The notes: generated by a model from the letters alone, not told the origin. Numbered from the stretch's first letter, positions 9,432 through 49,791 are shown. The stretch: DNA of 64,000 nucleotides from a bacterium (GCA_041739675.1 JBGSNL010000003.1:5846-69845); one strand, 5' to 3'. Made by a program: numbers and translations.

Positions 9432-9839
9432 ATGATGACTCAATTTCTCGTCTTTGGAACCGTGGGGATGGTCGCGGAGGTTATCTTCACGTCCTTCAAG
9501 CGCCTCTTGAGCGACAGGACGTACGAGCTCAAGGGAGAGACCTCGCTTTGGATGTTTCCGGTCTACGGCCTGATCGCATTCATATTTCCGCTTGTAGTCT
9601 ACCGCATCGGCTCCTTCCCTTGGTATATCAGGGGCGCTGTCTATATGGTGATCTTCTTTATCGTGGAATATGTGAGCGGGTTAGTGCTCAGAAAGATGAA
9701 GGTGTGCCCGTGGAACTATCCGGCAAAATATTCGCTGAACGGGCTCATATATTTTCCCTACGCGCCGGTCTGGTTCGCGGCGGGGCTGGGTGTCGAGAGG
9801 ATCTATCCGGTGATCACGGCGCTTGGCAAAGCCATTTGA
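9432..9839 (+). CDS. Small polytopic membrane protein, function unknown
   Basis: Start chosen at MMTQFLVFGTVG with a GGAGG RBS. Four predicted TM helices. The 3' end overlaps the convergent hemY gene. Confidence 0.4.
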   Translation: MMTQFLVFGTVGMVAEVIFTSFKRLLSDRTYELKGETSLWMFPVYGLIAFIFPLVVYRIGSFPWYIRGAVYMVIFFIVEYVSGLVLRKMKVCPWNYPAKYSLNGLIYFPYAPVWFAAGLGVERIYPVITALGKAI

Positions 9840-11160: not shown

Positions 11161-12029
11161 ATTTTGAGACCCGAAAACATTTTAACGATTGTTTCCGAAC
11201 TTCCCGGCGGTGCCGCCCTTCTAACATCGCGCATTCCGGCGCGTTTCGCAGCCGGGATGGCGACACGGTCGATATCAAACAAAGTCTCCACATTGTCAAA
11301 GAGAAAGCTTATGGGGACGACGAGGCAGTCTGAAATCCCTCTGTGGACGAATCTTGAAAGCTCCGTTTCCAACGGGGGGGAGCTCCAGCTTCTTCCCATC
11401 GCGCTCTGGTAGGCGACGCTCGTTGAATTTTTGGATCCCAAAGCCTTCGAGATGAGGCTTGCGGACTCTTCCACCTGTCTTTCGTAGGAATTGTCGCCCC
11501 GGTTGGGCGGCATGGCGTGGGCTGAGAAGATAATGTGCACTGAATCCCTGTTCTCGAATTCGCCCAACGATTTTTTGACCTGATCCGCCCATGCCTCGAT
11601 GAAAAGCGGGTGATCGTAAAACGGCCCCGCCCATCTGATGTGGATATTTCTGAAATATTGTTTTTTAAGTCGAGAAATTTTAGAGGCGATCTCGTCATAC
11701 ATTTCAAGGGTCGCGTGCGGATAGAGCGGCAAGATCCTCACGGTTTCGATTCCCTTTCCTTCAATTTCCGAAAGGGCATCTCCCATGGGAGGTTTTCCAT
11801 ATTGCGCCGCCACGAAAACATTTTCGCCCAATCTTTCCGTGAACCGGCGAATTTCGTCCGAAGCTGCGAATCCCACGGCATCATATTTTTTCAGCGCCCT
11901 GTGCCTTGCAAGGAACGCAACGGGTCTTGAAAAAAAACCCAGACGGGCCGCAAATATGTCGTTGATAAAGGGCCCGACTTCCTTGCGGTTTGCAGGCGAA
12001 CCGAAATGGACTAAAAGTGTCGCTGTCAT
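11157..12029 (-). CDS. hemH: Ferrochelatase
   Basis: Ferrochelatase-like sequence throughout (LLVHFGSP..., ILPLYPH...). Start overlaps the hemN stop (ATGA). Confidence 0.8.
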   Translation of the reverse strand: MTATLLVHFGSPANRKEVGPFINDIFAARLGFFSRPVAFLARHRALKKYDAVGFAASDEIRRFTERLGENVFVAAQYGKPPMGDALSEIEGKGIETVRILPLYPHATLEMYDEIASKISRLKKQYFRNIHIRWAGPFYDHPLFIEAWADQVKKSLGEFENRDSVHIIFSAHAMPPNRGDNSYERQVEESASLISKALGSKNSTSVAYQSAMGRSWSSPPLETELSRFVHRGISDCLVVPISFLFDNVETLFDIDRVAIPAAKRAGMRDVRRAAPPGSSETIVKMFSGLKI

Positions 12030-13426
12030 ACGGTCCTTGAATATCTATTTTCCTGTGCCTTGAGATGAGAATCAAAAAGTGCGGCGATGTTTCTGATAAA
12101 GAGGCGGCCCAGCGGCGTCACCTTGAACTCTTTTTCCGACTCGCTGATAAGGCCGTCGGCAAGGAAATCCTTGGAGGAAACGCCTTTGAAAAAATCGTCA
12201 AACGTGGTGCCGCACACGTGCGCAAACTCCTTCTTGTCTATGCCCTGGGAGCAAAATAGTTTTTGCATGACGAAGCGGCGGTTTACATCCTCCTCTGTGA
12301 GCCTGTATCCGCGGCAGACGGGAAGCCTTCCGCACGAGATTGCCCTGAAATAATCGGATAGGCGTTTCTCGTTTTGCACATAGAGGTTTCCAATTTCGCT
12401 GATCGACGAAACCCCTAGGCCGATGAGGCCGGAAGTCGGTTTTGCAGTGTACCCCTGGAACGTGCGCCTTAGTACGCCGTTTTTTTGAGCCTTTGCGAGC
12501 TCGTCCGTCTGTTTTGCAAAATGATCGAGGCCTATGAATTTGTATCCGGCCTTCAGGAACTTCTCTATGGCGGACATGAACATCGAAATCTTTATCTGCG
12601 GCGCGGGAAGCGTGGCCGGGTCTATTTTTCGCTGATGCGGAGCCGCCCATGGGACATAGGCGAAGTTGAAAAGGGAGATGCGGTCAGGGCCCAGACGCAC
12701 GACGTCCGAAATCGTCTTTTGAAAATTATCGCGGTTCTGAAGGGGGAGCCCGTAGCACAAATCTATGTTAACACTCTGGAAATTTGCCTTTCGCGCGTCC
12801 AAGATAAGAGCTTCGATGCAATGAACGTCTTGCACCCTGCCGCACGCTTCTTGAACGTCCTGATTCGTATCCTGCACGCCGAAGCTTATGCGGTTGAACC
12901 CGAGTTCAGAGGCCAGCCTGATCTTTTCGCCGGTTGTCTGACGCGGATCAGCCTCGATTCCTATCTCCGCGCCGGTCTCCAGAGAAAAGCACGAAAGGGT
13001 CGCCTTCATCAGGCGCTCCATCTGCTTTTCGGTCAGATACGTCGGAGAGCCGCCCCCCCAATGAAGGCTGGAGAGCGTCACAATCGGGGAATTCAAATTA
13101 TTGCGGATGATATCCATCTCGGAGATCAAGTTGTCGACGTATCGGTCTATGATATCGATTTTCGGTGTCGCTATGGCGTTGCACGCGCAAAACGTGCAGC
13201 GTGAGCGGCAGAACGGCAGATGCATATATAATGAAAGGGCGTTGGCGCACGTGTGCATAAGCGCATAAGTGAAATCGAAAAGGCCGACGTCGCCGTTCCA
13301 CGCCGGGGCGGGTGGATACGAGGTGTAGCGGGGGAGCGTCCGGTCGTACTTTTCGATGAGATAGGGCGTCAGCTCCACCCTGCACCCGTCGATGACCGCC
13401 GCCATGTCTTTATCTATATTTTGCAT
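12026..13426 (-). CDS. hemN: Oxygen-independent coproporphyrinogen III oxidase (radical SAM)
   Basis: Radical SAM CxxxCxxC (CRSRCTFCAC). HemN-like length and C-terminal HemN_C-like region. Confidence 0.8.
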   Translation of the reverse strand: MQNIDKDMAAVIDGCRVELTPYLIEKYDRTLPRYTSYPPAPAWNGDVGLFDFTYALMHTCANALSLYMHLPFCRSRCTFCACNAIATPKIDIIDRYVDNLISEMDIIRNNLNSPIVTLSSLHWGGGSPTYLTEKQMERLMKATLSCFSLETGAEIGIEADPRQTTGEKIRLASELGFNRISFGVQDTNQDVQEACGRVQDVHCIEALILDARKANFQSVNIDLCYGLPLQNRDNFQKTISDVVRLGPDRISLFNFAYVPWAAPHQRKIDPATLPAPQIKISMFMSAIEKFLKAGYKFIGLDHFAKQTDELAKAQKNGVLRRTFQGYTAKPTSGLIGLGVSSISEIGNLYVQNEKRLSDYFRAISCGRLPVCRGYRLTEEDVNRRFVMQKLFCSQGIDKKEFAHVCGTTFDDFFKGVSSKDFLADGLISESEKEFKVTPLGRLFIRNIAALFDSHLKAQENRYSRTV

Positions 13427-14441
13427 TTTTCACCGTGTCCACAAAAGCCGCAACGCTCGCAACGGGGGTTTTGGGAAGAACCCCGTGGCCGAGATTGGCG
13501 ATGTATCCGGATTCGTTGCCTGCGCCTTCAAGCATCCGGAGCGTCTCGCGTTCGACGGTTGAAGGGGACCTCAAAAGCGTTTCGGGATTCAAGTTTCCCT
13601 GGATCGCCGCGCTATTTTTTGCGCGCCCGATCGCCTCTTTGATATCGATGTCGGAGCCTACGCTCAAAACGTCCGCCCCCGATGATATCATCATGTCAAA
13701 GAGCTCAGAGCTGTTCCTGACATAAAGAATCGCAACGGCGCCCGTTTTTTTGATCTCCGAAACTATTTTTTTGACGTACGGCAGCGCGAATTTTTCATAT
13801 TCGAAAGGGGAAAGAAGCCCGCCCCACGTATCGAATATCTGTATGGCGTCGCTGCCTGCGCTGACCTGCTGGATGGCAAGCGAAGAAATAGTCGGTGTTA
13901 TTTTTTCAAGAAGAGCAGAAACAATTTCAGGCGATTCGCGCAGAAGTGAAATTGCGGAATCGAAACTGCCGCTCCCCCCTTCGATCATATAAGCTGCGAG
14001 GGTCCATGGCGCCCCTACAAATCCCAGAAGTGCCGTTTCCTCTTTGAGCTCGTGGCGGAGATTTTGGGTCGCTTCAAGAAGATGGGGCAGCGAAATGCGC
14101 ACGTTGGGGGAGGACAGGTTTTTTACATCGGCTGCCGTTGTAATTTTTGAATCGAATCTCGGGCCTACATTCTCTTCAAAACGGAGCTTCATCCCCATCG
14201 CATTGAGGGGAAGCAGGATGTCGGAAAAAACGATGACCGCATCCATCCCGAAGCGGCGCCACGGTTGCAGCGACACTTCGAAGATGAGGTCGGGCCTCCT
14301 GCACATCGTGAGGAAATCGTATTTTTCGCGGAGCTCCTGATATTCAGGAAGATATCTTCCTGCCTGGCGCATCAGCCAGACCGGCCTCCGGTCGACTGTT
14401 AACCGCCGGCACGCATTAACAAAGCGCTCGCGGGAGTTCAT
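13410..14441 (-). CDS. hemE: Uroporphyrinogen decarboxylase
   Basis: Classic HemE N-terminus PVWLMRQAGRYLPEY. Confidence 0.9.
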   Translation of the reverse strand: MNSRERFVNACRRLTVDRRPVWLMRQAGRYLPEYQELREKYDFLTMCRRPDLIFEVSLQPWRRFGMDAVIVFSDILLPLNAMGMKLRFEENVGPRFDSKITTAADVKNLSSPNVRISLPHLLEATQNLRHELKEETALLGFVGAPWTLAAYMIEGGSGSFDSAISLLRESPEIVSALLEKITPTISSLAIQQVSAGSDAIQIFDTWGGLLSPFEYEKFALPYVKKIVSEIKKTGAVAILYVRNSSELFDMMISSGADVLSVGSDIDIKEAIGRAKNSAAIQGNLNPETLLRSPSTVERETLRMLEGAGNESGYIANLGHGVLPKTPVASVAAFVDTVKNAKYR

Positions 14442-17275: not shown

Positions 17276-18301
17276 ATGGAAAACGTTGCGCAAAAAATAT
17301 TCGCCGTGGTTTTGGGAGTCGCGCTTACATTGATGATGGCTCAATGCACGAAGAGCGGGAGTATTCCGTTCGGTGCGGAGCCGAACATTGAAGAGGGCAC
17401 GATCCCGTTTGACAAGACCGGGGTGGAGAATCTGGCGGGAGAGGCCGCGGTCGAAGGCGTCCCGGCGCAAAAGCCGCTTGTGGAGAGTATGCCGGAAGAG
17501 TTGACTTTGGTGTCTCATCCCGCGTCGCTTGTCTCAAATCTCCCTGATGGTTCGGAGGCGACCGTTCTCTTTTGCATGGACGGCGGAAAGGTTTTTTCAT
17601 CGGCAGTTTGGTCCGAACTTGTGAAGACCCCGACTCTCACAAAATTCGTCGAAAAAATGGAGTCGAAGGCCGGCCAGAATATCGAAGGGGCCTATTTGTG
17701 GACATTCGCCTGTTCGCCGCTTGCCGACAAGGATTGCGGCCAGAAGCTTCTTATCGTGGAACCCTTAAAAACAGTTTCCGCCGAAGAGGAAGCGGTTTCA
17801 TTAAAAATTCCTTTCGATACGGCGGGCCTGCCCATTTTATCTGCGGGTGGTTTCGATTCGTATAAGAAAGACGACGTGTTCTACGCCGTGAAGAACGGCA
17901 AGATGATGGTTTCGAACAATGAGCCCCTAATGAAAGCGGCGCTGCTGAACGATATGCTGTCACCGAAAATTCCCGCCGATTCCGTAGCTGTCCTGATTGC
18001 AAAAATGCCCGCAAAGGTTCTGGAGAAAATTGATTTCTTCAAGCCGAACGCTGCGAATGTGAAGCCGGTTCAAAAGATGGTGGCGTTCCTCAAGATAGCT
18101 CCGGATGAAAATCCGGAATTGGACATAAAATATTATGCGGGGGACTATGTGGCGGCTGCAACCGTCGTGAGACTCGACATCGAGCTCGTCGATTGGGATA
18201 AGTTGTTTAATTTCTTTAAGTCTGAAGATTCGAAAGATACAAAGACCGAAGTCGATTCGGCGAATAAACCGGTGACTAATTCCAATTCCAAAACCGAGTG
18301 A
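17276..18301 (+). CDS. Secreted lipoprotein, unknown function
   Basis: GGAGG RBS. Signal peptide plus lipobox (ALTLMMAQC). Followed by an intrinsic terminator. Confidence 0.5.
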   Translation: MENVAQKIFAVVLGVALTLMMAQCTKSGSIPFGAEPNIEEGTIPFDKTGVENLAGEAAVEGVPAQKPLVESMPEELTLVSHPASLVSNLPDGSEATVLFCMDGGKVFSSAVWSELVKTPTLTKFVEKMESKAGQNIEGAYLWTFACSPLADKDCGQKLLIVEPLKTVSAEEEAVSLKIPFDTAGLPILSAGGFDSYKKDDVFYAVKNGKMMVSNNEPLMKAALLNDMLSPKIPADSVAVLIAKMPAKVLEKIDFFKPNAANVKPVQKMVAFLKIAPDENPELDIKYYAGDYVAAATVVRLDIELVDWDKLFNFFKSEDSKDTKTEVDSANKPVTNSNSKTE

Positions 18302-18323
18302 GGTGCGAATCTTGTCTGGGCAA

Positions 18324-18352
18324 GCCCGAGGGAGAAACTCTCGGGCTTTTTT
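18324..18352 (+). terminator. Rho-independent terminator after the 17276-18301 gene
   Basis: GCCCGAG-loop-CTCGGGC stem followed by TTTTTT. Overlaps the hemA stop codon. Confidence 0.65.
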
Positions 18353-19619
18353 ATTCTTCGTTCAAGCGGAAGAGCCTGCAGAGGGTGTCGGCAAGGATGA
18401 TGCGTTCAAGGTCGTCTGATCCGCCGTCTTTGAGCTCTCTTGCGGCGTCGTGAAGAATCTTGGCGACTATGGATTGGGTTCCGGCCTCAATGATCTTTTT
18501 TTGCCTGTCATCAAGGCCCGAAAGTTTAGCGAGAGTTTTTTCAGCTTCCTGGGCGCCCAGGGCCTCCAGCTTTCGGCCCAGCATCGCAATTGTTGTAAGG
18601 AATTCGGGTTTTGAAAGTTCGAGAAAAAATTTGTCCGATTCTTCGCTTACCATGGCCTCGGCTTTTTGGGCTTCCATCGCGCGTCTTTCGCTGTTCTCTT
18701 TCGCGATGTGGCTCAAGTCATCTATGTTGAAAAGATGCACGTTCCTGATTTCGGAGACCTCCGGTTTCACATCCCTGGGTGTTCCTAGATCTATAATCAC
18801 CATGGGACGCGAGCGGGATTTGGCCGCACCCGCTATCATTTGTTCATCAATTATCGGCCGGTTCGCACCCGTTGAGGAAACTATTATGTCGGCGCGTCTC
18901 ATCGCCGATGAGAGATCGTCCCAGCCGATTGCCTCTCCTCCAGTGTGCTCTGCTATTAGCACGGCTTTTTCAAACGTCCGGTTCGCTACAAGGATGCGGC
19001 CGGTTCCGTATTTTTTGAGCTGTCTCACGACCAGCGCGCCCATCTCGCCGGCGCCCACCACGAGCACCGTCAAATTGGACAGATCTTCCAGATGTCTGGC
19101 CGCCAGATCCACGGCGACTGAAGCTATGGAGACCTGGCCCTTTCCAATCCCTGTCTCGGTGCGGATTTTTTTGGCCACGCCAATCGCTTTCAGCATTGCG
19201 CGGTCGATGAAGGGACCGGTTGTGCCCTGCTCCCTGGCTCTTGAATAGGCCTCTTTGATCTGTCCTAATATCTGCGCCTCGCCAACGACCATCGCGTCAA
19301 GACTCGATGCGACGCGGAACAGGTGCCTCATCGCATCCGGCCCCGTTTTTTCGTACCAGAAATCCGCCGACGAAGAAGGATCGACGCCCGCTTCCACGCA
19401 GAGCTCGTGTCGGAGTTTGCCGCCGACGGACCGTTCTCCGTCTGTTACCGCATAAATCTCAAAACGGTTGCACGTGGCCAGATACAAAGCTTCATTGATG
19501 ATCGAGCTGCCTTTAAGTCTGCCAAGAAATTCGTAGGCGTCATCGGGCTCGAAGGCGAACCGCTCCCGGAGCGAAATAGGCGCTTTCCGATGATTTATTC
19601 CGATGGTTAAAAATTCCAT
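18351..19619 (-). CDS. hemA: Glutamyl-tRNA reductase
   Basis: N-terminus LTIGINHRKAPISLRERFAF and the catalytic Cys context ATCNRFEIY. Confidence 0.9.
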   Translation of the reverse strand: MEFLTIGINHRKAPISLRERFAFEPDDAYEFLGRLKGSSIINEALYLATCNRFEIYAVTDGERSVGGKLRHELCVEAGVDPSSSADFWYEKTGPDAMRHLFRVASSLDAMVVGEAQILGQIKEAYSRAREQGTTGPFIDRAMLKAIGVAKKIRTETGIGKGQVSIASVAVDLAARHLEDLSNLTVLVVGAGEMGALVVRQLKKYGTGRILVANRTFEKAVLIAEHTGGEAIGWDDLSSAMRRADIIVSSTGANRPIIDEQMIAGAAKSRSRPMVIIDLGTPRDVKPEVSEIRNVHLFNIDDLSHIAKENSERRAMEAQKAEAMVSEESDKFFLELSKPEFLTTIAMLGRKLEALGAQEAEKTLAKLSGLDDRQKKIIEAGTQSIVAKILHDAARELKDGGSDDLERIILADTLCRLFRLNEE

Positions 19620-19620
19620 T

Positions 19621-20595
19621 TTATTTCCAGACGCCCGGGATCTTTTCGTTGCAGAACCTGCAATAACCGTCTTTCAGGTTGTTTTCAAGGACTATGTAAC
19701 CGCTTCTTTTTATGACGATTTTTTTGCATTTGGGGCATTTTGTGTTCTCAAACTCGTTTGGCGGTACATTTCCGACGTAAACGTATTTGAGTCCGGCATC
19801 TACCGCCGCCCGGGCGGTATCCATAAGTGTGGCTACAGGCGTCGGATATAAATTTGTGAGCCTGTAGAGCGGGAAGAAACGGGTGAAATGGATCGGCACA
19901 TCGGGGCCCATCTCGTTTAAAACCCACGAGATGATTTCTTTTAACTGTTCCGGCTTGTCGTTCATCGTCGGAACGACGAGATGGATGATCTCGAAGTGCA
20001 CGCCCAATTTTTTCGCGATCTTCAAATATCTTTCGACCGGACCCCGCGTGCCGCCGACAACGTTTCTGTAAAATTCGGGGTTCCCCTTGAACGTGATGGA
20101 CGCGCCGTCTGTCACGGAGAGAATTTCGTGCGCCGGAGCGTCGTTTAAAAACGCGGCCGTCACGAGAACGTTTTTTATCCCTTTCGCGTGCGCGGCCCGG
20201 CTCGTGTCCAGCGCGTATTCATAAAACGTGCTGGGGTCGGAATATGTGTACGCGATGGAAGGGCATTTGTTTTTCTCCGCCTCGCGCACGACGTCTTTCG
20301 GCATCATCTCCATGGATTCCACTTCGTCGGGATATTTCTGGCTGATGTCCCAGTTCTGGCAATAGAGACAGTGAAGGTTGCAGCCTGCGGTGGCGATGGA
20401 AAAGATGGAAGACGACGGCAGAAAATGGAAAAGAGGTTTTTTCTCGACGGGATCGATATGGGCGGCACACGGTTTTCCATAAACCAGCGTTAAGAGCTCG
20501 CCCTCGCGGTTGTAGCGCGAACGACAATAGCCGTGTTTGCCCGGTTTGATCGTGCAGCCGCGCGGACAAAGTTCGCACAAAATATCTTTGCTCAC
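19621..20595 (-). CDS. Radical SAM enzyme, PflA-like, probably the AmmeMemoRadiSam-system type (AmrS)
   Basis: Cys-rich N-terminus (CELCPRGC...GYC). Radical SAM motif CNLHCLYCQNW. C-terminal CPKC...CRFC zinc-ribbon-like pairs. Confidence 0.55.
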   Translation of the reverse strand: MSKDILCELCPRGCTIKPGKHGYCRSRYNREGELLTLVYGKPCAAHIDPVEKKPLFHFLPSSSIFSIATAGCNLHCLYCQNWDISQKYPDEVESMEMMPKDVVREAEKNKCPSIAYTYSDPSTFYEYALDTSRAAHAKGIKNVLVTAAFLNDAPAHEILSVTDGASITFKGNPEFYRNVVGGTRGPVERYLKIAKKLGVHFEIIHLVVPTMNDKPEQLKEIISWVLNEMGPDVPIHFTRFFPLYRLTNLYPTPVATLMDTARAAVDAGLKYVYVGNVPPNEFENTKCPKCKKIVIKRSGYIVLENNLKDGYCRFCNEKIPGVWK

Positions 20596-20870
20596 GGTTT
20601 CGCCTCCCCGGCTATCTTCAGGTGGCGCGCGGGCTCGCTTGAAAGTTTTCCGTCCTTGATCATCTTCTCGGTGACGGCCGTGCGGTTGCCTTCCTCCTTC
20701 AGCCGCTCCCTGTAGGTCGATTCAAAAAAATTCTCCGGTTGAGCCCGCTGCGGTTGCGCTGCGGCAGCCGGTTCGGGCGCTGCCTTCTCGGACGTTTTGT
20801 AAACCGCCCATGCGGTGGCGGCCAGGATCGCAAGTATTATCGGTATGAGGACGAGATTTTTGAGCTTCAT
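20592..20870 (-). CDS. Small membrane-anchored protein, unknown function
   Basis: Single N-terminal TM helix. Reading frame nested tightly between the polyferredoxin gene and the radical SAM gene, with overlapping stop/start codons. Confidence 0.4.
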   Translation of the reverse strand: MKLKNLVLIPIILAILAATAWAVYKTSEKAAPEPAAAAQPQRAQPENFFESTYRERLKEEGNRTAVTEKMIKDGKLSSEPARHLKIAGEAKP

Positions 20871-20871
20871 A

Positions 20872-22041
20872 TTATCTCCGGAATTTCAGGCGCACCTTTG
20901 TGCCCAGCCTTGAAAGCAACTCCACAACGAGCCCCGTGGGACAGAAGATGCGGCACCACGGGCGCCTTAGAAAAAGCGCCGCGACGAGAATTGTCCCGGA
21001 CTGGATCCAGACCGCGCTTCCGGCGTCGGGAGCAAAACAGCGCGAGAATGGCTCCACGTTTCTGAATGCCGGCACGTTGAAAGCGACGACCGCCACGATC
21101 ACCGCTGCCAGGACCAGCCACCTGATCCGGCCGGCGTGCTTCATCCATTTATCGTCTACTCCGCATTTGGGAATCTTTGCGGCGGAGGCCGCGTCCTGCA
21201 TCGCTCCGAACGGGCAGAGATATGAGCAGTAAAGCGGGCCCTTGAAGAGCGCGGAGACGACGGCGAATATAAGAAGCGAGAGAAGTGCCAGATTGTTGAT
21301 GCCGGGAATATCGCCATATCCGAGATCCAGAAAATTTCCGATCGACACCGGTGTGTTGAAGAGAAGGCCGATCACGATGAATGAAAGAAGGAGCGAGGAG
21401 GAGCGAAGTATGCGTTTCCCGGGCATGTAGACCGCGAGGATTGAAAATCCGATGAGAAAAAGCGCCGCGATGCCCGCGATCTTGGGCCTGTCGATAATGA
21501 CGTTACTTATTGCCGATTTTTTTTTTGACGCTTCGGAGAAAATTCCGCTCTTCAGAACCTTGTCAGCGGCCGCAAGAGACGCGGCGTGAATATCCTCTTT
21601 CATGGCCTGGGAAGATATCGTGGCGCCTGTCACGGTTTCGATTCTGCTCCAGTCGTCGGTGGGTTTCATTCCAAGAAAGCGTTTGAAAAATCCTGCGGAG
21701 ATTATTCGCTGCATGTGTTCGGGGCTGTCCTGATGGGCCAGAAGTTTTGTCCCGGTGATCGCACCCGATTTATCGACGCCCACAAGGACCGATAGCTCGT
21801 CCCTGTAACCGCCTATTTCAGGCGGAACCCTGGTTGTGATGACGGCGACCCCTGCCAGGCTGCCTTCGGAGTCAAAAAGGCTGTAACAGTCGATGGGCTC
21901 ACTGAGATGTTTGAAGCTTTTGGCCCCGGGGACCATGGAAAGGATATCCTTTTGAGAGGGCTCGGAAACGGGGCCGGCGGCGAATGCGCCAGCCGAGATG
22001 AGGATGATCAGAAAAATTGTAATTTGCCTGATCGCGGACAT
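20872..22041 (-). CDS. Membrane FMN-binding-domain protein with two 4Fe-4S CxxxCP motifs (NosR/NapH-like polyferredoxin)
   Basis: Start chosen at MSAIRQITIFLIILISAGAFA (signal peptide). Periplasmic FMN_bind-like segment (TGATISS). TM helices. CSYLCPFG and CRIFCPTG motifs. Confidence 0.6.
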   Translation of the reverse strand: MSAIRQITIFLIILISAGAFAAGPVSEPSQKDILSMVPGAKSFKHLSEPIDCYSLFDSEGSLAGVAVITTRVPPEIGGYRDELSVLVGVDKSGAITGTKLLAHQDSPEHMQRIISAGFFKRFLGMKPTDDWSRIETVTGATISSQAMKEDIHAASLAAADKVLKSGIFSEASKKKSAISNVIIDRPKIAGIAALFLIGFSILAVYMPGKRILRSSSLLLSFIVIGLLFNTPVSIGNFLDLGYGDIPGINNLALLSLLIFAVVSALFKGPLYCSYLCPFGAMQDAASAAKIPKCGVDDKWMKHAGRIRWLVLAAVIVAVVAFNVPAFRNVEPFSRCFAPDAGSAVWIQSGTILVAALFLRRPWCRIFCPTGLVVELLSRLGTKVRLKFRR

Positions 22042-22102
22042 GGCCGGAGTATGGGCCGACTCCCCTTGACGTGTCAATAGCAGGGGTTGTATAGGCCGGT
22101 TT

Positions 22103-22486
22103 ATGTATAAATGGACTCTATTGCTTTGTCTTTTGGTTGTCATTTCCTGCGGAGGCACCTCTTCCGATTCCGGATTTTTCGACGATGTGCCCACCGGTTC
22201 GTCTCCGGTCGTTTCGCGGCTGGATCCGGCCTCCGGCCCCGTCGGAACTTTGGTGACAATTTACGGTCTGGGATTTTCATATATCGCGCCGACGAATATT
22301 ATTGCGATGGGAACCGGGGCCGCTGTTGCGGAGAGTTATTCTATTTTAGCTGCCCCTACCACCGACGAGATCGAAACACTCACCTTCACGGTGCCGACGG
22401 GGCTTGCACCCGGAGCTTATCCGGTGGTAGTTGTCGTGCACGAAATTCCAAGCAACTCCGACGTGCAATTCACGGTGACGCCATGA
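22103..22486 (+). CDS. Small lipoprotein with an IPT/TIG-like Ig-fold domain
   Basis: Signal peptide plus lipobox (LLVVISCGG). PVVSRLDPASGPVGTLVTIYG is IPT-like. Stop overlaps the downstream kinase start (ATGA). Confidence 0.5.
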   Translation: MYKWTLLLCLLVVISCGGTSSDSGFFDDVPTGSSPVVSRLDPASGPVGTLVTIYGLGFSYIAPTNIIAMGTGAAVAESYSILAAPTTDEIETLTFTVPTGLAPGAYPVVVVVHEIPSNSDVQFTVTP

Positions 22487-23520
22487 CGGAACTTTCAAAA
22501 GATCGCCTGAACACGATGTTTCGCGAGACACTGAAAAGCGACTCGCCCGTGCGAACGATTACAAAGCTCCACGGCGACGCCTCATACCGCACATATTTCC
22601 GGGCCACATTGGAGGACGGGCGCACTTTCATACTGATGAAGATGCCTCTGGGAAAAGCCTCCGCCTCGGAGGAGATAACCAACTTCAACGGCACGCACAA
22701 GGAGCTCCCCTTCATAAATGTCGCACGCTTTCTGAAAAGCCACGGGATCAACGTCCCCGAGGTGCGCCGCTATTATGAAGACGACCACATAATGATCCTT
22801 GACGATCTTGGCGATAACATCATGGCGAAGATTGTGGAAGGAGGCGGCGACGATGTGAGGCAGGCGTGGTACAGGCGCGCGGTCGATCTTTTGATCGAGC
22901 TCCAGAAAAAAACGTCGGTCTCGCACAAGTTCGAGTGCGTGGCCCTGCAGCGTTCGTTCGACGCCACGCTTTTGAACTGGGAGTTCGATCATTTTCTGGA
23001 ATACGGAATCGAGGAGCGGAGGCTCAAGAAGATGGGCGATGCCGACAGGGACCTGTTCGTGAAGGAGACAAGAAAAATATCGGCTGCTATCTCGGAGCTC
23101 CCCTACGGTTTCACTCACCGCGATTTTCAGAGCCGCAACATTCTCATAGTGGGAGACGATCTCTACCTCATCGATTTTCAGGACGCGCTTATGGGCCCTG
23201 CTGCATACGATCTTGTCTCGCTCTTACGCGACTCGTATGTGAAGCTCTCTGAACCGCTTCTCGATCGCCTCATCGAATATTACTGCGACAAGAAAGGCAG
23301 GGACTGCAAAACTTTCAGGCACGAATTCGATCTTGTCACCTGCCAGAGAAAGTTGAAGGATGCCGGACGGTTCGTCTACATCGACCGCGTGAAGAAAAAT
23401 CCCGATTTCCTGAAATATATACCGACGTCTCTGGGCTATGTGCAAAGTGCCATGATAAAACTTCCCGAATGCCAGCCTTTATACGAGATGCTCAAAAAAT
23501 ACGTTCCGGAGTGGAATTGA
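22483..23520 (+). CDS. Aminoglycoside-phosphotransferase-fold kinase, AmgK-like (anomeric MurNAc/GlcNAc kinase candidate)
   Basis: APH-family catalytic motifs HRDFQSRNILI and IDFQDA. Translationally coupled (TGATG) to an NTP-transferase gene, as in the AmgK-MurU arrangement. Confidence 0.6.
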   Translation: MTELSKDRLNTMFRETLKSDSPVRTITKLHGDASYRTYFRATLEDGRTFILMKMPLGKASASEEITNFNGTHKELPFINVARFLKSHGINVPEVRRYYEDDHIMILDDLGDNIMAKIVEGGGDDVRQAWYRRAVDLLIELQKKTSVSHKFECVALQRSFDATLLNWEFDHFLEYGIEERRLKKMGDADRDLFVKETRKISAAISELPYGFTHRDFQSRNILIVGDDLYLIDFQDALMGPAAYDLVSLLRDSYVKLSEPLLDRLIEYYCDKKGRDCKTFRHEFDLVTCQRKLKDAGRFVYIDRVKKNPDFLKYIPTSLGYVQSAMIKLPECQPLYEMLKKYVPEWN

Positions 23521-24251
23521 TGGAAGGCGAAATCAAAAAAGCGATGGTGCTTGCGGCGGGGCTGGGAACGAGGCTTAGGCCCCTCACATACAAAGTTCCG
23601 AAGCCGCTTCTGAAGCTGGATTTGCACAGGCTGATCGACTATTCATTATATTATCTTTCGCGCTACGGAATTTCAGGGGTGATGATAAATCTCCACCATC
23701 TCGGCGATATGATACGCGAATATGTCGGGGACGGCAGCCGATATAATCTCAAGGTCTCATATTCGCATGAACCTGAAATTCTGGGGACCGGCGGCGGGAT
23801 AAAAAACTGCGAGTCCTTCTTTGAGGGAAAACCTTTTGTCTCGATCAACTCGGATTCTCTTTTGAATGTGGATCTCGCATCGGCGATCAAAAAACATTTT
23901 CAGAGCGGGGCCCAAGCTACGATGGTCTTGAAAAAACGTGATTCCTCCGATCCGTATGACGGCATTGAAATAGAAAACGGGTTCGTCAAAAAAATCGGAG
24001 GAGATGGCGGCTATTTTTATACAGGGCTGCAAATAATAGGCCCCGAACTTTTAAAGGAGCTGCCTCCGAAGGGGACGGCCTCCTGTCTCATCAAAGACGG
24101 ATACCGGAGGTTGATGGAAAAGGGCGGAAAAGTTGCTGCGTTCATCTACGACGGTTACTTCAACGATCTGGGCACACCGGAGCGTTACGAGCAGGCAAAA
24201 AAAGACGTGGCAAGCGGCGCCTACGGGCTGGAGGCCGTTTCCAGATTGTAG
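23520..24251 (+). CDS. Nucleotidyltransferase, MurU-like (sugar-1-phosphate uridylyl/guanylyltransferase family)
   Basis: N-terminal MVLAAGLGTRLRPLT...KPLL NTP-transferase motif. Confidence 0.65.
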   Translation: MEGEIKKAMVLAAGLGTRLRPLTYKVPKPLLKLDLHRLIDYSLYYLSRYGISGVMINLHHLGDMIREYVGDGSRYNLKVSYSHEPEILGTGGGIKNCESFFEGKPFVSINSDSLLNVDLASAIKKHFQSGAQATMVLKKRDSSDPYDGIEIENGFVKKIGGDGGYFYTGLQIIGPELLKELPPKGTASCLIKDGYRRLMEKGGKVAAFIYDGYFNDLGTPERYEQAKKDVASGAYGLEAVSRL

Positions 24252-26686
24252 ATCTCGATCCCGCATGTGTCAGACGAAGCCAAGAGCCGGTTTTCAAATT
24301 CATCAAACATCGCAAGCCCGTTGAAGCGGCAAGTGTCGCAGCTCGAATCCACCTTCGGGACCTTCGGGTCCGATATGTCAATCACCCAGAATGGTTTTGA
24401 CGCGCCTTCAGGCGTGGCGACGTAGAGTTTTTTGGATGTTGCAACGATGGAGGAATTTGAAAATCTTTCCGTCGCTGCAGCCGAGGCGGGCAGCGCGGTT
24501 GCCGAGATGTCGGTCGTTGGATCGGCAGCACTTCTTATCTTGATGGTCTTGCCTTGTATGAATGCAAACGTTTCTCCCGTCTCATCGAAATCGAGATCCA
24601 TCACGTTTTCGAGAGGCGTGGTGAGACTATTTATCGCCGACGGCGCCGCTCCCGATGACGGATTTATGTCGAACGAGAAAAGGCCGGCGGCGCAGGAAAA
24701 CGTGACGGTGTAAACGCCGGCATCGCTTTTCGTTATCTTTTGAATGCGCGCCCGCTTGTCTCTCTCATCGCCCTTGTAGGAGATGGTGCTCGTGGTGCCC
24801 TGAAGGTTGGGATTGAATTTTGAGTCCGCGAACCCGCCGCCGTAGACAGTTCCCTGATAATAATGTTTTCCGCCCGCGTAGCCGTAAAGCAGCGCGAATA
24901 GCTTGCCGCTATAGAGAGCGATATCGGCCACGCCGCGCCCCTGTTCAAGGGCGTCCTTGTCGCTTGCCGAAACTGGAGGGAAATCCTTGAAATGTTTTGA
25001 GTCACCGGTGCGCGGGAAGGAGAGCTGCCCTCTCGTGGTCGTATCTTCCCCCTTCTGCCATTCTATGCGCCACGCGTCGCCGGGGGCCGACCATGCGAAC
25101 GCCAGGTTTTCCCCCTTGTAGGCGGCGCGCGCGACGTAGGAACCGGGTGTAGGCGTTGCAATCGAAATTTTTTTGCGCTCCTTGTCGTTTTCAAGATAGA
25201 GAATTCCGCCCATTTCGGATTCGAGATCCATTGAGACGATGTAGAGGCCGTTTGCATCCTCCATCCGCGTCCTGATGGCGCCGGTGTCGACGATGAGAAA
25301 CGTGCCGTCCGGCTGAACCACCTCAAGAGACGAGGCGCCGCTTCCGTCTTCGCGTTTCACCGCCACGAACGTCGCAGCGGTGTAGTTAGCACCGCTGATA
25401 GTCGCCACACCAAGGTTAGCCGGTACGCCGCCCAGAAGGTCGTTTCGTCCGTCAAACGATGAGCTTGTATTCCAGAGCTCTTCGCCCGTCACCGGGTCCG
25501 TGGACCTTGTCATCACCGCAAGGAAGTTGGGCGCGCGCAAGGTGATGATGTCGTTTCCCGCGGCCATGTGGAAGATGAGCGGCGGGGCGTTCTCGTTTAT
25601 TTGATAGACGAACGGGGCGCGCGCAAAGTAGGCGGCCTTTTCGGTTACCTTGGTGAGATCGCGATAGATGAAAAATCCGGCCGTGAAAGCGTCGAATCCG
25701 CCGCTTGTTTTGGCCTTTGTGAGATCCCCGCTTTTCGCTTTTTCGCGCATGCAGGCGAGCTTTTCAGCGTCGGTAGACTTGTCGCATTTTGTAATTAGGA
25801 AATTCTGGGCCGCCGCATTTTCATAGGCCAGTCCCGCAACGTAGAAGTTGACCCCGTCGGTGGAGACGTCCGTCGGGATGAAAGAATCGAAGCCCGTGAA
25901 CTTCCCCGCCTCCGGTGTGAACGAAACATTCGTAACCGCTTTCGTTCCGATATCGACCATGCGGACAATTGTTTCGGCCTGGCCCGTCATAATATTTTGA
26001 AGAATCGGATCGAACACCTGTTCGAATGTTGGAGTGAGCCCTCCCTGCACGGTTTTTTGCGCGAGCAGGAATATCTTCGATTCGGTGACTGCAAGTCTCA
26101 CGGGCAGATACGCCGTTTCGCCGTCCTTGAGTTCAGCCGACGATACGATCTTTGACGGTGCGGTCTTGCTTGCCACTCCGTCTTCGGTCGTCGACATCAC
26201 GCTTCCGTCGCCCGTTATGAAATAGAAATTCTTTTTATCACCGGTCTTGGCAATTGCGACGGCAACCACCCCTTCAGGAACCGACAGGAAGGCTTTTTCG
26301 GCCAACGTTCCGTCATCGGCAAGAATGACAACACCCACGCCGCGTTCGGTACCGTAAAATATTTTTGGATCCGCGCCGGTGCCGAAAGAGGCCATATCGG
26401 TCACGGCGCCCTGATTCTTAAGAAGAAGCGGACCCAGTGTCACGCCGCTCGATGCGTACTGTATCGAGGAGCCCAGCCCCCAGATGATCAGCGGAATCGG
26501 TTCCGAATCCGGGATCGAGACAAGGGTACTGGCGACCGCGCGTATCTGGCCGCCGATGCCTCCCTGATAATAGTTGAGGATGTTATCGGCTTCGCTCAAG
26601 TCCTGAGTGCTTTTACCGCCGCCGCTGCAGGTCCATACAAAAGCGAGAAGGGGCAGGCAGATTAAAAGAAGTAACAGTCGTTTCAT
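24221..26686 (-). CDS. Large secreted lipoprotein, unknown function
   Basis: Start chosen at MKRLLLLLICLPLLAFVWTCSGGG. No recognisable catalytic motifs. Beta-rich composition. Confidence 0.45.
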   Translation of the reverse strand: MKRLLLLLICLPLLAFVWTCSGGGKSTQDLSEADNILNYYQGGIGGQIRAVASTLVSIPDSEPIPLIIWGLGSSIQYASSGVTLGPLLLKNQGAVTDMASFGTGADPKIFYGTERGVGVVILADDGTLAEKAFLSVPEGVVAVAIAKTGDKKNFYFITGDGSVMSTTEDGVASKTAPSKIVSSAELKDGETAYLPVRLAVTESKIFLLAQKTVQGGLTPTFEQVFDPILQNIMTGQAETIVRMVDIGTKAVTNVSFTPEAGKFTGFDSFIPTDVSTDGVNFYVAGLAYENAAAQNFLITKCDKSTDAEKLACMREKAKSGDLTKAKTSGGFDAFTAGFFIYRDLTKVTEKAAYFARAPFVYQINENAPPLIFHMAAGNDIITLRAPNFLAVMTRSTDPVTGEELWNTSSSFDGRNDLLGGVPANLGVATISGANYTAATFVAVKREDGSGASSLEVVQPDGTFLIVDTGAIRTRMEDANGLYIVSMDLESEMGGILYLENDKERKKISIATPTPGSYVARAAYKGENLAFAWSAPGDAWRIEWQKGEDTTTRGQLSFPRTGDSKHFKDFPPVSASDKDALEQGRGVADIALYSGKLFALLYGYAGGKHYYQGTVYGGGFADSKFNPNLQGTTSTISYKGDERDKRARIQKITKSDAGVYTVTFSCAAGLFSFDINPSSGAAPSAINSLTTPLENVMDLDFDETGETFAFIQGKTIKIRSAADPTTDISATALPASAAATERFSNSSIVATSKKLYVATPEGASKPFWVIDISDPKVPKVDSSCDTCRFNGLAMFDEFENRLLASSDTCGIEIYNLETASSP

Positions 26687-26748
26687 ATTTCCACCTCTCT
26701 TAACCCCCTCGGAAATCATAGCACACATGCGCATTGGAGGGAAGCGGG

Positions 26749-28234: not shown

Positions 28235-29719
28235 ATGAGCATATTTTCCGACATTCTCTCCCAGCCGGCCGTTGTGGCGGCGATAGCCGTCGTCTTCATT
28301 ATATACTGGAGGATCGCGGCGAGAAGCACAAAGTTTCCGCATATACCGCTGGGTCTTTTCATACTTTACCTTCTGATTGATTTTGCGCGGATATTGCTGC
28401 TGTCTTACAACCTGCCTCAATGGGCGGCCCGTCTGGATCTCATCTCGATCATAGTCCTTTACTGCGCGGCGGCGCGTCTTGTCTTTTATGTCTTTGTCGA
28501 TATCTGGCTCACGCGCAAGCTCAAGTTCCAGCTTCCTAAAATCACGAGGGATGTGGCGCTTGCCGTCATATTTGCCGTCATCGTCATAATTCTTCTCCAC
28601 AAAAAAGGTGGCGTGAACCTCGCCTCACTTATCACCACGTCCGCCGTCCTTACGATGGTCATAGGTCTTGCGCTGCAGGACACGCTTGGAAATCTCTTTT
28701 CGGGGCTGGCGCTTCAAACCGAAAAACTCCTTCAGATCGGGGAGTGGATATCGTTCCGCGAACACGTGGGGCAGGTTGTGGGGATGACGTGGAAATCCAC
28801 GCTCATAAAGACGCTGGAAAACGAGATCGTCTATATTCCCAACAACGTGATCTCCAAAGAGATCGTGAAAAATTATTCGCGGCCGGAACCCTCCCATGTG
28901 GCATACATAGAGATAGGTATTCAGTACGAGGCGCCGCCCAACAAGGTGCGGGAAGTCATTTTAGACACCCTTGCGGAGTATGACAAGGTTCTGAAAGTTC
29001 CGCCTCCGCAAGTTCGTCTCATCATGTTCGGCGACCACGCGATAACTTATCAGATAAGATTCTGGAACAACGATTTCGGCGGGGAGAAGCTTCTCAAAGC
29101 CGAGATCATGAACATGCTCTGGTACGCGTTTAAGCGCAATGGCATACAGATCCCGTTCCCGATAAGGGATGTGCGTTTCCATCACGTCGAGCGGGCGAAT
29201 GAGGAACATAAAAGAGAGGGGATTCGCTCAGCTATTACGGCGAAGCTCAAAAATATTCCTGTCCTTACGCCGCTTCCGCCCGAGGACATCGAGCTTCTGG
29301 CAAAGCGTGTTTCATTTGAACTTTTTGGAAACGGCGAATCGATCGTCCATCAGGACGAGCTAGGCGATTCGATGTATATCATACACAGCGGCGGCTGCGA
29401 CATCGTCTTGGAGGGCGGTGAGAGAAAAGTCGTTGCCACTTTGAAGGAAGGGGATTTCTTTGGAGAGATGAGTTTGCTCACCGGCGAGCGGCGCACGGCG
29501 ACCGTCGTTGCGAAAGGCGACACAGAGGTTTTCATGATCGACAAAAAATCTTTTGCCGATATCCTAAAGGCTCATCCGGCCATCTCGGAAACACTGGGGC
29601 AGGCGCTTGTCACGCGCCAGACCTATCTTGCCGCAATGCAGGGCAGAAAAGAAGCTCCCTCGCCATCAGCCACCTCGCAGCTCGTATCCAAGATCAAATC
29701 ATTTTTTGGAATTGGATAA
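28235..29719 (+). CDS. Mechanosensitive channel (MscS family) fused to a C-terminal cyclic-nucleotide-binding domain
   Basis: N-terminal TM helices and an MscS-like core. C-terminal CAP-type cNMP-binding signature GDFFGEMSLLTGERRTATVVA. Confidence 0.75.
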   Translation: MSIFSDILSQPAVVAAIAVVFIIYWRIAARSTKFPHIPLGLFILYLLIDFARILLLSYNLPQWAARLDLISIIVLYCAAARLVFYVFVDIWLTRKLKFQLPKITRDVALAVIFAVIVIILLHKKGGVNLASLITTSAVLTMVIGLALQDTLGNLFSGLALQTEKLLQIGEWISFREHVGQVVGMTWKSTLIKTLENEIVYIPNNVISKEIVKNYSRPEPSHVAYIEIGIQYEAPPNKVREVILDTLAEYDKVLKVPPPQVRLIMFGDHAITYQIRFWNNDFGGEKLLKAEIMNMLWYAFKRNGIQIPFPIRDVRFHHVERANEEHKREGIRSAITAKLKNIPVLTPLPPEDIELLAKRVSFELFGNGESIVHQDELGDSMYIIHSGGCDIVLEGGERKVVATLKEGDFFGEMSLLTGERRTATVVAKGDTEVFMIDKKSFADILKAHPAISETLGQALVTRQTYLAAMQGRKEAPSPSATSQLVSKIKSFFGIG

Positions 29720-31429: not shown

Positions 31430-31541
31430 GGTTTTCCTCCCGTTTGTAAAGTTCTGATAGCCCAAGCTCTTTCCAGAGTCCACCCTTTTCCTTTGACAGG
31501 TCAAACGGGCGCAATTACGCTTGGAAACGCGGAGGTGATTT

Positions 31542-31731: not shown

Positions 31732-33201
31732 ATGCAGAGACGCAACGTTTTTTATATCTTGCTTGCGGCGTGTCTTCTTTTTCCGGGCGAGGGCTGCTCC
31801 AAGGTTAAGGCCCCGGCCGAAAAGAAGGCGGAACAGACAGTCGTGAAACCCGCAGTTGCGGGGGCGTTTTATCCCGCCGACAAAGAGATATTAAGCACGA
31901 CAATCGAAAAATATTTGAACGAGGCCGCTCCTGCGCCTGTGAGCGAGCACATATTCGGTATCGCGGTCCCGCACGCGGGTTATCAATATTCGGGGCCGGT
32001 CGCGGCATACGCCTACAAATCGATAGAGGGGAAAAAATATTCGACTGTTGTCGTCATGGCCCCGTCACATCGGGTCGGTTTTGAAGGTATCGCCCTCACG
32101 ACAAAGGATTTTTACGAGACGCCGCTGGGCCGGATCCCCATCGCAAAAGAGCTCTCGCAAAAACTCATGAGCGATTTTTCCTGGGCCAAAGACGATCCGC
32201 GCCCATACGGTATTGAGCATTCACTTGAGGTGGAGCTCCCCTTTTTGCAGACGGTGCTCAAAGATTTCAAAGTCCTTCCCATAATAGTCGGCGTTACAAA
32301 TCCCAACATGCTTTCAAAGCTGGCGGCAAAATTGAACGAGATGCTCCCCGGCGGGGATGTCCTTTTTGTCGCGAGCACCGATCTTTCCCACTACCACCCT
32401 TATAATGATGCGGCGGCGAGGGATAAAAAGACCATAAAAATCATCGAGGATATGAACGTTGCGGCGTTCGCTGCGGCGGAACTGAAGGGGGAGGCCGAGC
32501 TTTGCGGCGGCGCACCTGTCGAAACGCTCATGGAGATCGCAAAGCTTAGAAAGGGCAAGGCGAAGCTTGTGAAATACGCCAACTCCGGCGACGTTACGGG
32601 CGACAAGTCGCGCGTCGTGGGCTACGGGGCTTTTGTGTTCACAGGCGGGGCGGCAGCGGAAGAGGGTGCTCTTTCGGAGACGCAGAAAAAAACGCTGCTC
32701 GCGATTGCGAGAAATTCGATCGAGGCCGAGGTGTCAGGAAAGCCGCAGCCAAAGTTTGACATAAAAGATCCCGTTCTTCTCAAAGACGGCGCGGCATTTG
32801 TGACCATCAGGGAACACGGGGATTTGAGGGGCTGCATCGGCCACATCATGGCGGTGGGGCCGCTTTACAAATCGGTGCGCGATAACGCCGCCTCCGCGGC
32901 ATCGCAGGACCCGCGTTTTCCTCCGGTGAGGCCGGATGAACTTAAAAATATCGATCTTGAAATATCGGTTCTCACGCCGCCAGAGCCTCTTTTAAAACCG
33001 ATGGATGTCAGGATCGGAACCGACGGTCTCATCATACAAAAAGGATATAACCGCGGAGTCCTTCTGCCGCAGGTTCCCGGCGAGCAGGGCTGGGGAAAAG
33101 AAGAGTTTCTGGAAGGTATCTGCCGCAAGGCCGGCATGTCCGCCGGCTGCTGGAAAGACGCCAACCTCATGCGCTTCCAGGCTATCGTTTTTCATGAATA
33201 A
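31732..33201 (+). CDS. Memo-like (AmrB) and AMMECR1 (AmrA) fusion protein with an N-terminal signal-like segment
   Basis: Memo motifs AGAFYP, APSHRVGFEG and DLSHYH. C-terminal AMMECR1 motif LRGCIGHI. N-terminus MQRRNVFYILLAACLLFPG is signal-peptide-like. Confidence 0.75.
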   Translation: MQRRNVFYILLAACLLFPGEGCSKVKAPAEKKAEQTVVKPAVAGAFYPADKEILSTTIEKYLNEAAPAPVSEHIFGIAVPHAGYQYSGPVAAYAYKSIEGKKYSTVVVMAPSHRVGFEGIALTTKDFYETPLGRIPIAKELSQKLMSDFSWAKDDPRPYGIEHSLEVELPFLQTVLKDFKVLPIIVGVTNPNMLSKLAAKLNEMLPGGDVLFVASTDLSHYHPYNDAAARDKKTIKIIEDMNVAAFAAAELKGEAELCGGAPVETLMEIAKLRKGKAKLVKYANSGDVTGDKSRVVGYGAFVFTGGAAAEEGALSETQKKTLLAIARNSIEAEVSGKPQPKFDIKDPVLLKDGAAFVTIREHGDLRGCIGHIMAVGPLYKSVRDNAASAASQDPRFPPVRPDELKNIDLEISVLTPPEPLLKPMDVRIGTDGLIIQKGYNRGVLLPQVPGEQGWGKEEFLEGICRKAGMSAGCWKDANLMRFQAIVFHE

Positions 33202-37753: not shown

Positions 37754-37782
37754 ATCCTAAGCCCCTTTCTTCCTTAGATTGC

Positions 37783-39708: not shown

Positions 39709-39769
39709 GTTTCCTCCTTAATTTCCCCCGATTCACCTTCAATTCATCTCAATTTGAAAAAACTCCTTC

Positions 39770-49781: not shown

Positions 49782-49791
49782 AGGAGGGGTC

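Follow-up and report, generated by a model that had tools for sequence, protein, structure and literature searches.

A conserved gene string suggests a membrane-wired variant of the AmmeMemoRadiSam system, with hemA as its probable passenger

An uncultured bacterium is the source of the DNA described here; the best named relatives of its MnmG protein belong to metagenome-assembled genomes labeled 'Deltaproteobacteria/Pseudomonadota bacterium' (58-66% identity). A string of four minus-strand genes in a 64,000-nucleotide (nt) stretch of bacterial DNA (GCA_041739675.1 JBGSNL010000003.1:5846-69845; hereafter the window) raises the question of what a radical S-adenosylmethionine (SAM) enzyme of the AmmeMemoRadiSam type (AmrS) has to do with its immediate neighbors: a flavin mononucleotide (FMN)-binding membrane protein, termed the conduit here, a protein of 92 amino acids (aa) with a single transmembrane (TM) helix, and glutamyl-tRNA reductase (HemA). 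Memo and AMMECR1, the other two proteins of this poorly understood three-gene system, occur in conserved form from archaea to humans, and both MEMO1 and AMMECR1 have links to disease. An earlier note on this DNA had seen in the locus a functional lead, either in redox supply or in tetrapyrrole-related chemistry. Sequence comparisons and structure models make it, on balance, probable in our view that the locus encodes a membrane-wired form of the system and that hemA is no more than a passenger.

As we picture it, the functional unit would consist of the conduit, the 92-aa protein as membrane anchor, the catalytic AmrS core and an exported Memo-AMMECR1 fusion protein, whose gene is the fourth of the operon in sister lineages and lies displaced by 11 kilobases (kb) in the window. 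The signal-less core would stay on the cytoplasmic side, tethered at the membrane by the anchor, whose C-terminal strand would complete an N-terminal hairpin that one-piece AmrS proteins form within a single chain. The conduit would carry a CX3CP iron-sulfur site on its cytoplasmic face and a covalent FMN on its outer face, and electrons would cross the membrane through it between AmrS, or the cytoplasmic side, and the exported Memo-AMMECR1 side. The conduit would thus substitute for the co-localization that other bacteria appear to get by exporting AmrS. On which side each part lies, how the parts touch, which way the electrons run and what the substrate is are points that we infer.

The gene string and its membrane redox partner

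The radical SAM gene, taken for an AmrS gene in the earlier note, keeps this identity in profile searches: its product reaches 328.8 bits on TIGR04337 (cutoff 220) and has the CxxxCxxC radical SAM motif as C72/C76/C79. Two other identities were tried and rejected, namely a heme-pathway enzyme of the AhbD/NirJ kind (20 bits on TIGR04545, cutoff 500; no SPASM domain match in a Pfam scan of the core) and a PflA activase (47.7 bits on TIGR02493, cutoff 231.75), the two outcomes that would have spoken against the original assignment. PflA and the other glycyl-radical activases are nevertheless the nearest characterized and solved relatives of the core, a PflA activase being the closest solved one by a weak match, and a search of the PDB gave no solved AmrS. 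The core differs from them in falling far under the family cutoff, in the absence of a glycyl-radical enzyme nearby at this locus, and in additional invariant N- and C-terminal cysteine sets (C7, C10, C14, C24 and C287, C290, C312, C315, invariant across 23 homologs), which could hold auxiliary clusters.

The junctions of the four genes, described before as overlapping or spaced by 1 nt, were read directly: the TAA of the conduit gene, one T and the ATG of the 92-aa open reading frame (ORF); the TGA of the latter, overlapping the GTG start of AmrS by 4 nt (GTGA); and the TAA of AmrS, one A and the ATG of hemA. A promoter-like site lies immediately 5' of the conduit gene start, and a predicted hairpin terminator follows the hemA stop directly, separating that gene from a convergent one (17276-18301); a terminator scan found none comparable to this hairpin inside the four-gene string. 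With the A-rich flank upstream of the hairpin, the predicted terminator could be bidirectional. The tight junctions, the upstream promoter-like site and a terminator only after hemA support, at the sequence level, one transcription unit. Since the identical string recurs in independent metagenome contigs, the arrangement is no chance pattern of ORFs.

The product of the first gene had been called a polyferredoxin, which is a misnomer because the protein has no ferredoxin domain (no Fer4-type match in Pfam); judged by its domains and its structure model, it is a NapH/NosR-like polytopic membrane protein with an RnfG/NqrC-like FMN domain. It matches PF04205 FMN_bind with 40.5 bits and PF12801 with 61.5 bits over two stretches, corresponding to two CX3CP units, and comprises a signal or anchor at residues 1-22, a TGAT flavinylation motif at 138-141 within the FMN domain, five TM helices and the CX3CP motifs C272/C276/P277 and C363/C367/P368, the C-terminus following about 20 residues past the second of these. 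An alignment of 31 sequences shows no variation at C272, C276, P277, C363 and C367 and almost none at P368, G139, A140 and T141. All NCBIfam scores stay below cutoff (NapH 50.7 vs 234 bits; napH subfamily 47.4 vs 213; NosR 39.5 vs 1000), and the RnfG matches are likewise weak. The AlphaFold2 model, with a predicted local distance difference test (pLDDT) score of 87.5, has an N-terminal helix and an alpha/beta domain, followed by five long helices; a Foldseek comparison aligned its N-terminal half with RnfG and NqrC chains (E 1.6e-4 to 1.3e-2), and the PDB gave neither a solved match to the membrane part nor a solved NapH-like membrane domain. Topology was derived from the helices of the model and the positive-inside rule. 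If the FMN domain is outside, as predicted, the helix order and the basic loops would bring the two CX3CP motifs to the cytoplasmic side, in agreement with the description of NapH-like proteins (PMC8238504).

With the flavinylated NapH-like systems (NosR, PceC, NapH; PMC8238504), the conduit shares an N-terminal, predicted extracytoplasmic FMN_bind domain with a [ST]GA[TS] motif, joined to a polytopic membrane part in which the CX3CP motif occurs twice. It differs from NapH and NosR in scoring below every family cutoff and in lacking a C-terminal two-cluster ferredoxin domain, and from these systems in general in that its partner is a radical SAM enzyme, with no periplasmic terminal reductase and no ApbE nearby at this locus. 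The covalently flavinylated periplasmic subunits RnfG and NqrC share the fold of its N-terminal half, but the conduit stands outside any Rnf/Nqr gene set and its FMN domain continues into a NapH-like membrane domain. Proteins of the flavinylated NapH-like class have been recognized before, most of them without an assigned partner; they are proposed to carry electrons across the membrane and described as modular partners of many oxidoreductases, and the survey that describes them mentions neither radical SAM nor Memo nor AMMECR1 (Meheust et al. 2021, PMC8238504). One of many orphan proteins of this class would gain a defined partner at the locus described here.

Linkage of conduit and AmrS was followed from both sides. 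On the AmrS side, 80 loci from many phyla were picked on AmrS alone, drawn among the matches listed and with AmrS at most 53% identical to that of the window, and up to 10 kb on each side were examined; on the conduit side, the 31-homolog alignment was followed by 80 metagenome loci. The order conduit - anchor - AmrS is kept in all AmrS relatives at 71-80% identity, and wherever conduit homologs of at least 36% identity had enough downstream DNA, AmrS came next in every case. AmrS was present in 16/80 conduit-side metagenome loci, and nine loci (L094, L095, L098, L099, L101, L150, L168, L169, L170) have the full order conduit - small ORF - AmrS - Memo/AMMECR1. Adjacency spans 45-100% identity for AmrS and 25-100% for the conduit. 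On the AmrS side, 7/80 loci hold a conduit homolog (at least 70 bits), in two further architectures. The first is a DsbD_2+FMN_bind+Fer4_5 fusion (555-581 aa) directly upstream of a TM-anchored AmrS in metagenome-assembled genomes of Auribacterota, UBP3 and Chlamydiota. The second, in Planctomycetes-like loci, is a protein of 1186-1293 aa directly after AmrS and Memo-AMMECR1 (L012:12754-16635, L160:5532-9092; also L036, L043, L147, L027, L083), with a spermidine-synthase-like membrane N-terminal part and FMN_bind+Fer4_5 as its C-terminal third. As a separate observation, an ORF with a GIY-YIG nuclease domain lies between AmrS and the Memo-AMMECR1 gene in one locus (L169:9374-9658), which suggests a mobile insertion in the operon.

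The 92-aa open reading frame and the split of AmrS

The AmrS core of the window is a short form, without a signal peptide or anchor of its own, and its TIGR04337 match begins at profile position 11. Positions 1-10, an EA.YY strand, are absent from the core; on our reading, it is the 92-aa ORF that supplies this strand. That a small TM protein lies between the conduit and radical SAM genes had been recognized before, and in fact a small single-TM ORF fills this gap in every locus that combines a conduit gene with a short AmrS. The window copy consists of a TM helix, a linker and a C-terminal strand motif that is degenerate here (...GKLSSEPARHLKI...); it is 65% and 51% identical to the copies in L001 and L006, both of which bear the motif. 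Across loci, the anchor motif reads G.LS..PA+Y[WY]K, and when sequences are right-aligned on the first cysteine, it coincides with the L.EA.[FY]Y.KL that stands ahead of C.LCP in one-piece AmrS proteins. With a hidden Markov model (HMM) of this 18-residue segment, 8/12 real anchors score above all but one of 600 shuffles.

Structure prediction is in line with this correspondence. A one-piece AmrS was modeled with AlphaFold2 (pLDDT 88.3). Its TM helix and linker come out disordered, while the segment adopts a fold (block pLDDT 96): it forms a strand in a hairpin, the partner strand of which leads into the first cysteine. In the split genes the break maps to the hairpin loop. Joining of the small ORF and AmrS by frameshifting or read-through was considered and ruled out, as the frame offset is 0, 1 or 2 depending on the locus, the core frame contains stops, and the spacers range from -4 to ~300 nt. 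Taking together the conserved position, the motif alignment, the HMM ranking, the hairpin model and the varied frames, we regard the 92-aa protein as an N-terminal anchor piece that was split off from AmrS and that should bind the core.

Export signals, sidedness and competing explanations

Reading of AmrS N-termini required extension of the homologs to the first start codon. Most of the 80 cross-phylum AmrS proteins then have N-terminal extensions with twin-arginine (Tat)-type motifs (such as SRREFLK, TRREFLK, SKREFIK) with a hydrophobic stretch behind them; among the rest are Sec-type and lipoprotein-type peptides and TM helices, and two archaeal homologs likewise carry export-type N-terminal peptides. 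Peptides of this kind would not be expected on a radical SAM enzyme. The motif [RK]R.[FY][LIVMF] occurs in 43/80 AmrS extensions versus 6% of control ORFs. Since Pfam TAT_signal gave no match at E <= 0.05 on ten long-form proteins, it is by motif pattern only that the long forms appear to be Tat substrates. The core of the window and all other short forms have no signal. Conduits and Tat motifs are distributed in a complementary manner: in the AmrS-side sample, a conduit was found near none of 49 Tat-motif AmrS genes versus 7/20 short or TM-anchored ones (Fisher p = 7e-5), and in a neighbor-joining tree the short forms make up one clade, almost entirely conduit-linked, and the DsbD_2-type loci a second, separate one. 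As an aside, some Tat-motif AmrS proteins (P0055, P0060, P0068, P0088, P0098, P0103; L010, L056) have a CxxCH + CH.PH insertion between the signal and the first cysteine motif, which could be a heme-c-type or other metal site.

Memo (AmrB) and AMMECR1 (AmrA) were found fused in a single gene 11 kb from the operon, as noticed previously, with 275.1 bits on TIGR04336 (cutoff 26) and 179.9 bits on TIGR04335 (cutoff 99); in L006 the fusion gene lies ~8 kb away on the other strand. The protein begins with a signal- or lipoprotein-like peptide (MQRRNVFYILLAAC LLFPGEGC...) and is predicted to be exported, it contains the AMMECR1 motifs RGCIG and DPRF, and in the PDB its relatives are MEMO1 and three archaeal AMMECR1 proteins (PH0010, ST0229 and MM0484). 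Memo or AMMECR1 genes are near AmrS in 44/80 survey loci, and nearly all Memo genes in the surveyed bacterial loci have signal- or lipoprotein-like N-termini.

These N-termini also bring up an explanation in which the whole system works outside the cytoplasm: the AmrS core would be exported together with its anchor by an unrecognized route, and the outer FMN domain would reduce the radical SAM cluster in the manner of a flavodoxin, with the CX3CP site taking up electrons from the cytoplasm and the membrane potential assisting their way out. Radical SAM reductants usually have FMN as their cofactor, the DsbD_2 module serves to export reducing power, and this explanation would account better than the membrane-wired model for the DsbD_2 fusions and for one-piece AmrS proteins with an N-in/C-out appearance, besides the export-type N-termini of most surveyed bacterial AmrS proteins and of Memo/AMMECR1. 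On the other hand, the signal-less cores of the window and of all short forms are left with no export route, the anchors have no consistent twin-arginine motif, TAT_signal did not match the long forms, and we know of no route for SAM supply or iron-sulfur assembly outside the cytoplasm. We therefore consider an all-extracytoplasmic system unlikely, yet deserving of more weight than the explanations discussed below for AmrS as a maturase or for an unrelated conduit.

Several observations weigh against the membrane-wired reading. By the positive-inside rule, one-piece, TM-anchored AmrS proteins such as those of L016, L028 and L041 look oriented N-in/C-out, and their catalytic domain would then lie outside; the topology of the separate anchors is ambiguous, with basic residues flanking the TM helix on both sides. 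The anchor motif of the window (PARHLKI) is too degenerate to score on its own in the HMM test. No ApbE flavin transferase gene was found among the ORFs of the 64-kb window, and it may be elsewhere in the genome. Half of the short-form AmrS genes in the AmrS-side sample (4/8) have no conduit within reach of the survey, an ordinary flavodoxin might reduce a cytoplasmic AmrS, leaving a supply role of the conduit in doubt, and in L094 a frameshifted hemA is divergent from the conduit gene, so that a deeper hemA association is possible. Finally, conduit paralogs of ~30% identity sit beside PriA, TyrRS, PilZ and similar unrelated genes; given these housekeeping contexts, the conduit family is not exclusive to AmrS. 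This last finding, along with the partnership of NapH-like proteins with many oxidoreductases (PMC8238504), would suit a conduit that is an independent, quinol-linked respiratory module and merely shares an operon with AmrS. Such adjacency without function is at odds with a linkage kept over the identity ranges given above, with its occurrence in three separate domain architectures and with its correlation to the N-terminal type of AmrS, and no terminal reductase was found nearby among the ORFs of the window; we give it hardly any credence.

A third possibility leaves AmrS in the cytoplasm, tethered as in the membrane-wired reading, and makes it a maturase that modifies Memo-AMMECR1 before export (for example, at the RGChG cysteine) in the way of anaerobic sulfatase-maturating enzymes, with the conduit as a mere electron sink or source. 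Its nearest characterized relatives, PflA and NrdG, are protein-activating enzymes, the fusion is predicted to be exported and the core is not, and the extra invariant cysteines could hold auxiliary clusters. However, the relation to PflA is weak by its score, and a maturase would explain neither the export signals on most other AmrS proteins nor the outward-facing FMN predicted for the conduit, which leads us to regard this role as improbable.

A wider proposal, tentative and in our estimate possible rather than probable, would be that the bacterial AmmeMemoRadiSam system as such belongs to the membrane and envelope and is not a cytosolic RNA-modifying one: AmrS would be mostly exported, Memo-AMMECR1 secreted or a lipoprotein, a spermidine-synthase-like protein the fourth partner, and, where AmrS has lost its signal, conduit and anchor would reconnect it electrically to the outside. 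If true, one would expect as substrate a molecule of the membrane or periplasm, such as a lipid, an isoprenoid/quinone or a polyamine-type compound, and AmrS would be the first radical SAM family to work largely outside the cytoplasm. The spermidine-synthase-like protein named in this proposal, polytopic and 560-730 aa in length, was observed near AmrS in 46/80 survey loci versus 44/80 for Memo/AMMECR1 (examples: L013:3582-5774, L022:8300-10510, L168:10728-12929, L170:4352-6043). It has a Pfam Spermine_synth match and SpeE scores far under cutoff, appears to be a fourth member that often accompanies the system, and was not found in the window or its closest relatives. In L016:311-1651 and L028:6594-7917, an RseC/MucC-family membrane protein and a PNP_UDP_1 phosphorylase stand beside the DsbD_2-FMN_bind-Fer4_5 fusion on the opposite strand; the phosphorylase, of the size of a methylthioadenosine phosphorylase, could clear SAM by-products.

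How does this compare with the AmmeMemoRadiSam system as known? All three of its proteins (TIGR04335 AmrA, TIGR04336 AmrB, TIGR04337 AmrS) are in the window, each above cutoff; the window differs by the splitting of AmrS into anchor and core, by a fourth, conserved membrane redox partner, and by a fusion gene with an export signal that is displaced by 11 kb, hemA being in its former slot. Burroughs et al. 2019 reportedly extends the Memo contexts and may already describe the conduit or the spermidine-synthase-like partner. In the literature compared, which did not include that study, we found no description of the conduit link, the split anchor or AmrS signal peptides, and no functional study for AmmeMemoRadiSam, for AMMECR1 with radical SAM or for radical SAM with twin-arginine. 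The three-gene system, the Memo-AMMECR1 fusion and the flavinylated NapH-like class are thus already known, and the conduit link, the split anchor and the AmrS signals apparently new. The neighborhood and fusions of AMMECR1, radical SAM and ring-opening-dioxygenase genes, including the Memo-AMMECR1 architecture, were noted in 2007 together with a prediction of RNA base modification (Balaji & Aravind, PMC2034487), a prediction that fits poorly with exported components. Gene order, family assignments, conservation, the split of AmrS and the complementary distribution are direct observations. The locus and its relatives constrain the system by a transmembrane flavin/iron-sulfur partner, a split anchor, a Memo-AMMECR1 protein predicted to be exported and an either-or pattern of export signal and conduit; these constraints favor redox chemistry located at the membrane or running across it and, at least for bacteria, speak against the older guess of RNA modification.

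hemA, heme genes and other features of the window

The last gene of the string is a regular hemA (398.8 bits on TIGR01035, cutoff 209.55; GlutR_N, Shikimate_DH and GlutR_dimer all present), and its position invites a tetrapyrrole reading, according to which the AmrS system would modify tetrapyrroles or their precursors or control glutamyl-tRNA reductase. The 1-nt junction with AmrS and the lack of a terminator between the two genes speak for it, as do conservation of the full string conduit - small ORF - AmrS - hemA at 71-80% AmrS identity (L001-3, L006-7, L088-89), i.e., in three sub-lineages of the close clade, the presence of hemA beside the module of L094 in the other orientation, and the genes hemE, hemN, hemH and hemY (9814-14441), located 4 kb downstream of hemA on the same (-) strand. 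Yet the survey of relatives, a check proposed by the earlier note, confined the linkage to the closest clade. Even there, L004/L005 (AmrS 75% identical) keep the first three genes and have a reverse-strand gene in the hemA slot; in sister lineages (AmrS 50-59%; L094, L095, L098, L099, L101, L168, L169, L170) the Memo-AMMECR1 fusion follows AmrS, hemA being absent from L095, L098, L099, L101 and L168-L170; and hemA is found in 0/80 cross-phylum AmrS loci. The low AhbD score of AmrS points in the same direction. Moreover, the tightly packed heme string consists of ordinary genes, with hemE (TIGR01464), hemN (TIGR00538), HemY (TIGR00562) and a ferrochelatase just under the TIGR00109 cutoff, so that no late heme step is left for AmrS. 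A role in tetrapyrrole chemistry is, in consequence, decidedly improbable.

Following AmrS in the closest clade only, hemA is by this comparison a lineage-specific passenger of the AmrS operon in one narrow clade, and the simplest reading is that it moved into the slot vacated by the displaced Memo-AMMECR1 gene. Of the original functional lead, redox supply is thus strengthened by the conserved conduit linkage, while its tetrapyrrole part fails the survey, and the hemA lead is not worth pursuing as a clue to function. Between hemA and the heme string lie a peptidase S8 gene, a small lipoprotein-like ORF and the convergent gene mentioned above, a layout that is the same in relatives.

Coordinates of the operon genes, their predicted transcription signals and the Memo-AMMECR1 fusion gene, counted from the first nucleotide of the window
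Feature	Coordinates	Strand	Remarks
FMN_bind/NapH-like conduit gene	20872..22041	-	389 aa; first gene of string
92-aa single-TM ORF	20592..20870	-	second gene; no Pfam/NCBIfam match
AmrS catalytic core gene	19621..20595	-	324 aa; third gene; TIGR04337
hemA (glutamyl-tRNA reductase)	18351..19619	-	final gene of string; TIGR01035
Promoter-like site TTGACA-18-CATACT	22048..22077	-	10/12 consensus positions; candidate by consensus match only
Hairpin terminator, predicted	18322..18348		11-bp stem, 7 GC pairs; T-run on + strand
Memo (AmrB)-AMMECR1 (AmrA) fusion	31732..33201	+	489 aa; TIGR04336 + TIGR04335

The plus-strand genes at 22103-24251 diverge from the operon, a gap of only 61 nt separating the two start codons; they encode a TIG-domain lipoprotein-like ORF followed by an AmgK-like kinase and a MurU-like uridylyltransferase, the latter two below equivalog cutoffs; their synteny is kept in all close relatives. 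Five large minus-strand ORFs (837, 659, 865, 641 and 476 aa; 24221-26734, 29699-31678 and 35156-41204) have no Pfam/NCBIfam match, and the 837-aa ORF is conserved at the same position in relatives. Finally, a protein of the deoxyhypusine synthase family (PF01916, 300 bits) is encoded on the plus strand at 49711-50913 of this bacterial sequence; the family uses spermidine, which may be compared with the spermidine-synthase-like partner near AmrS elsewhere.

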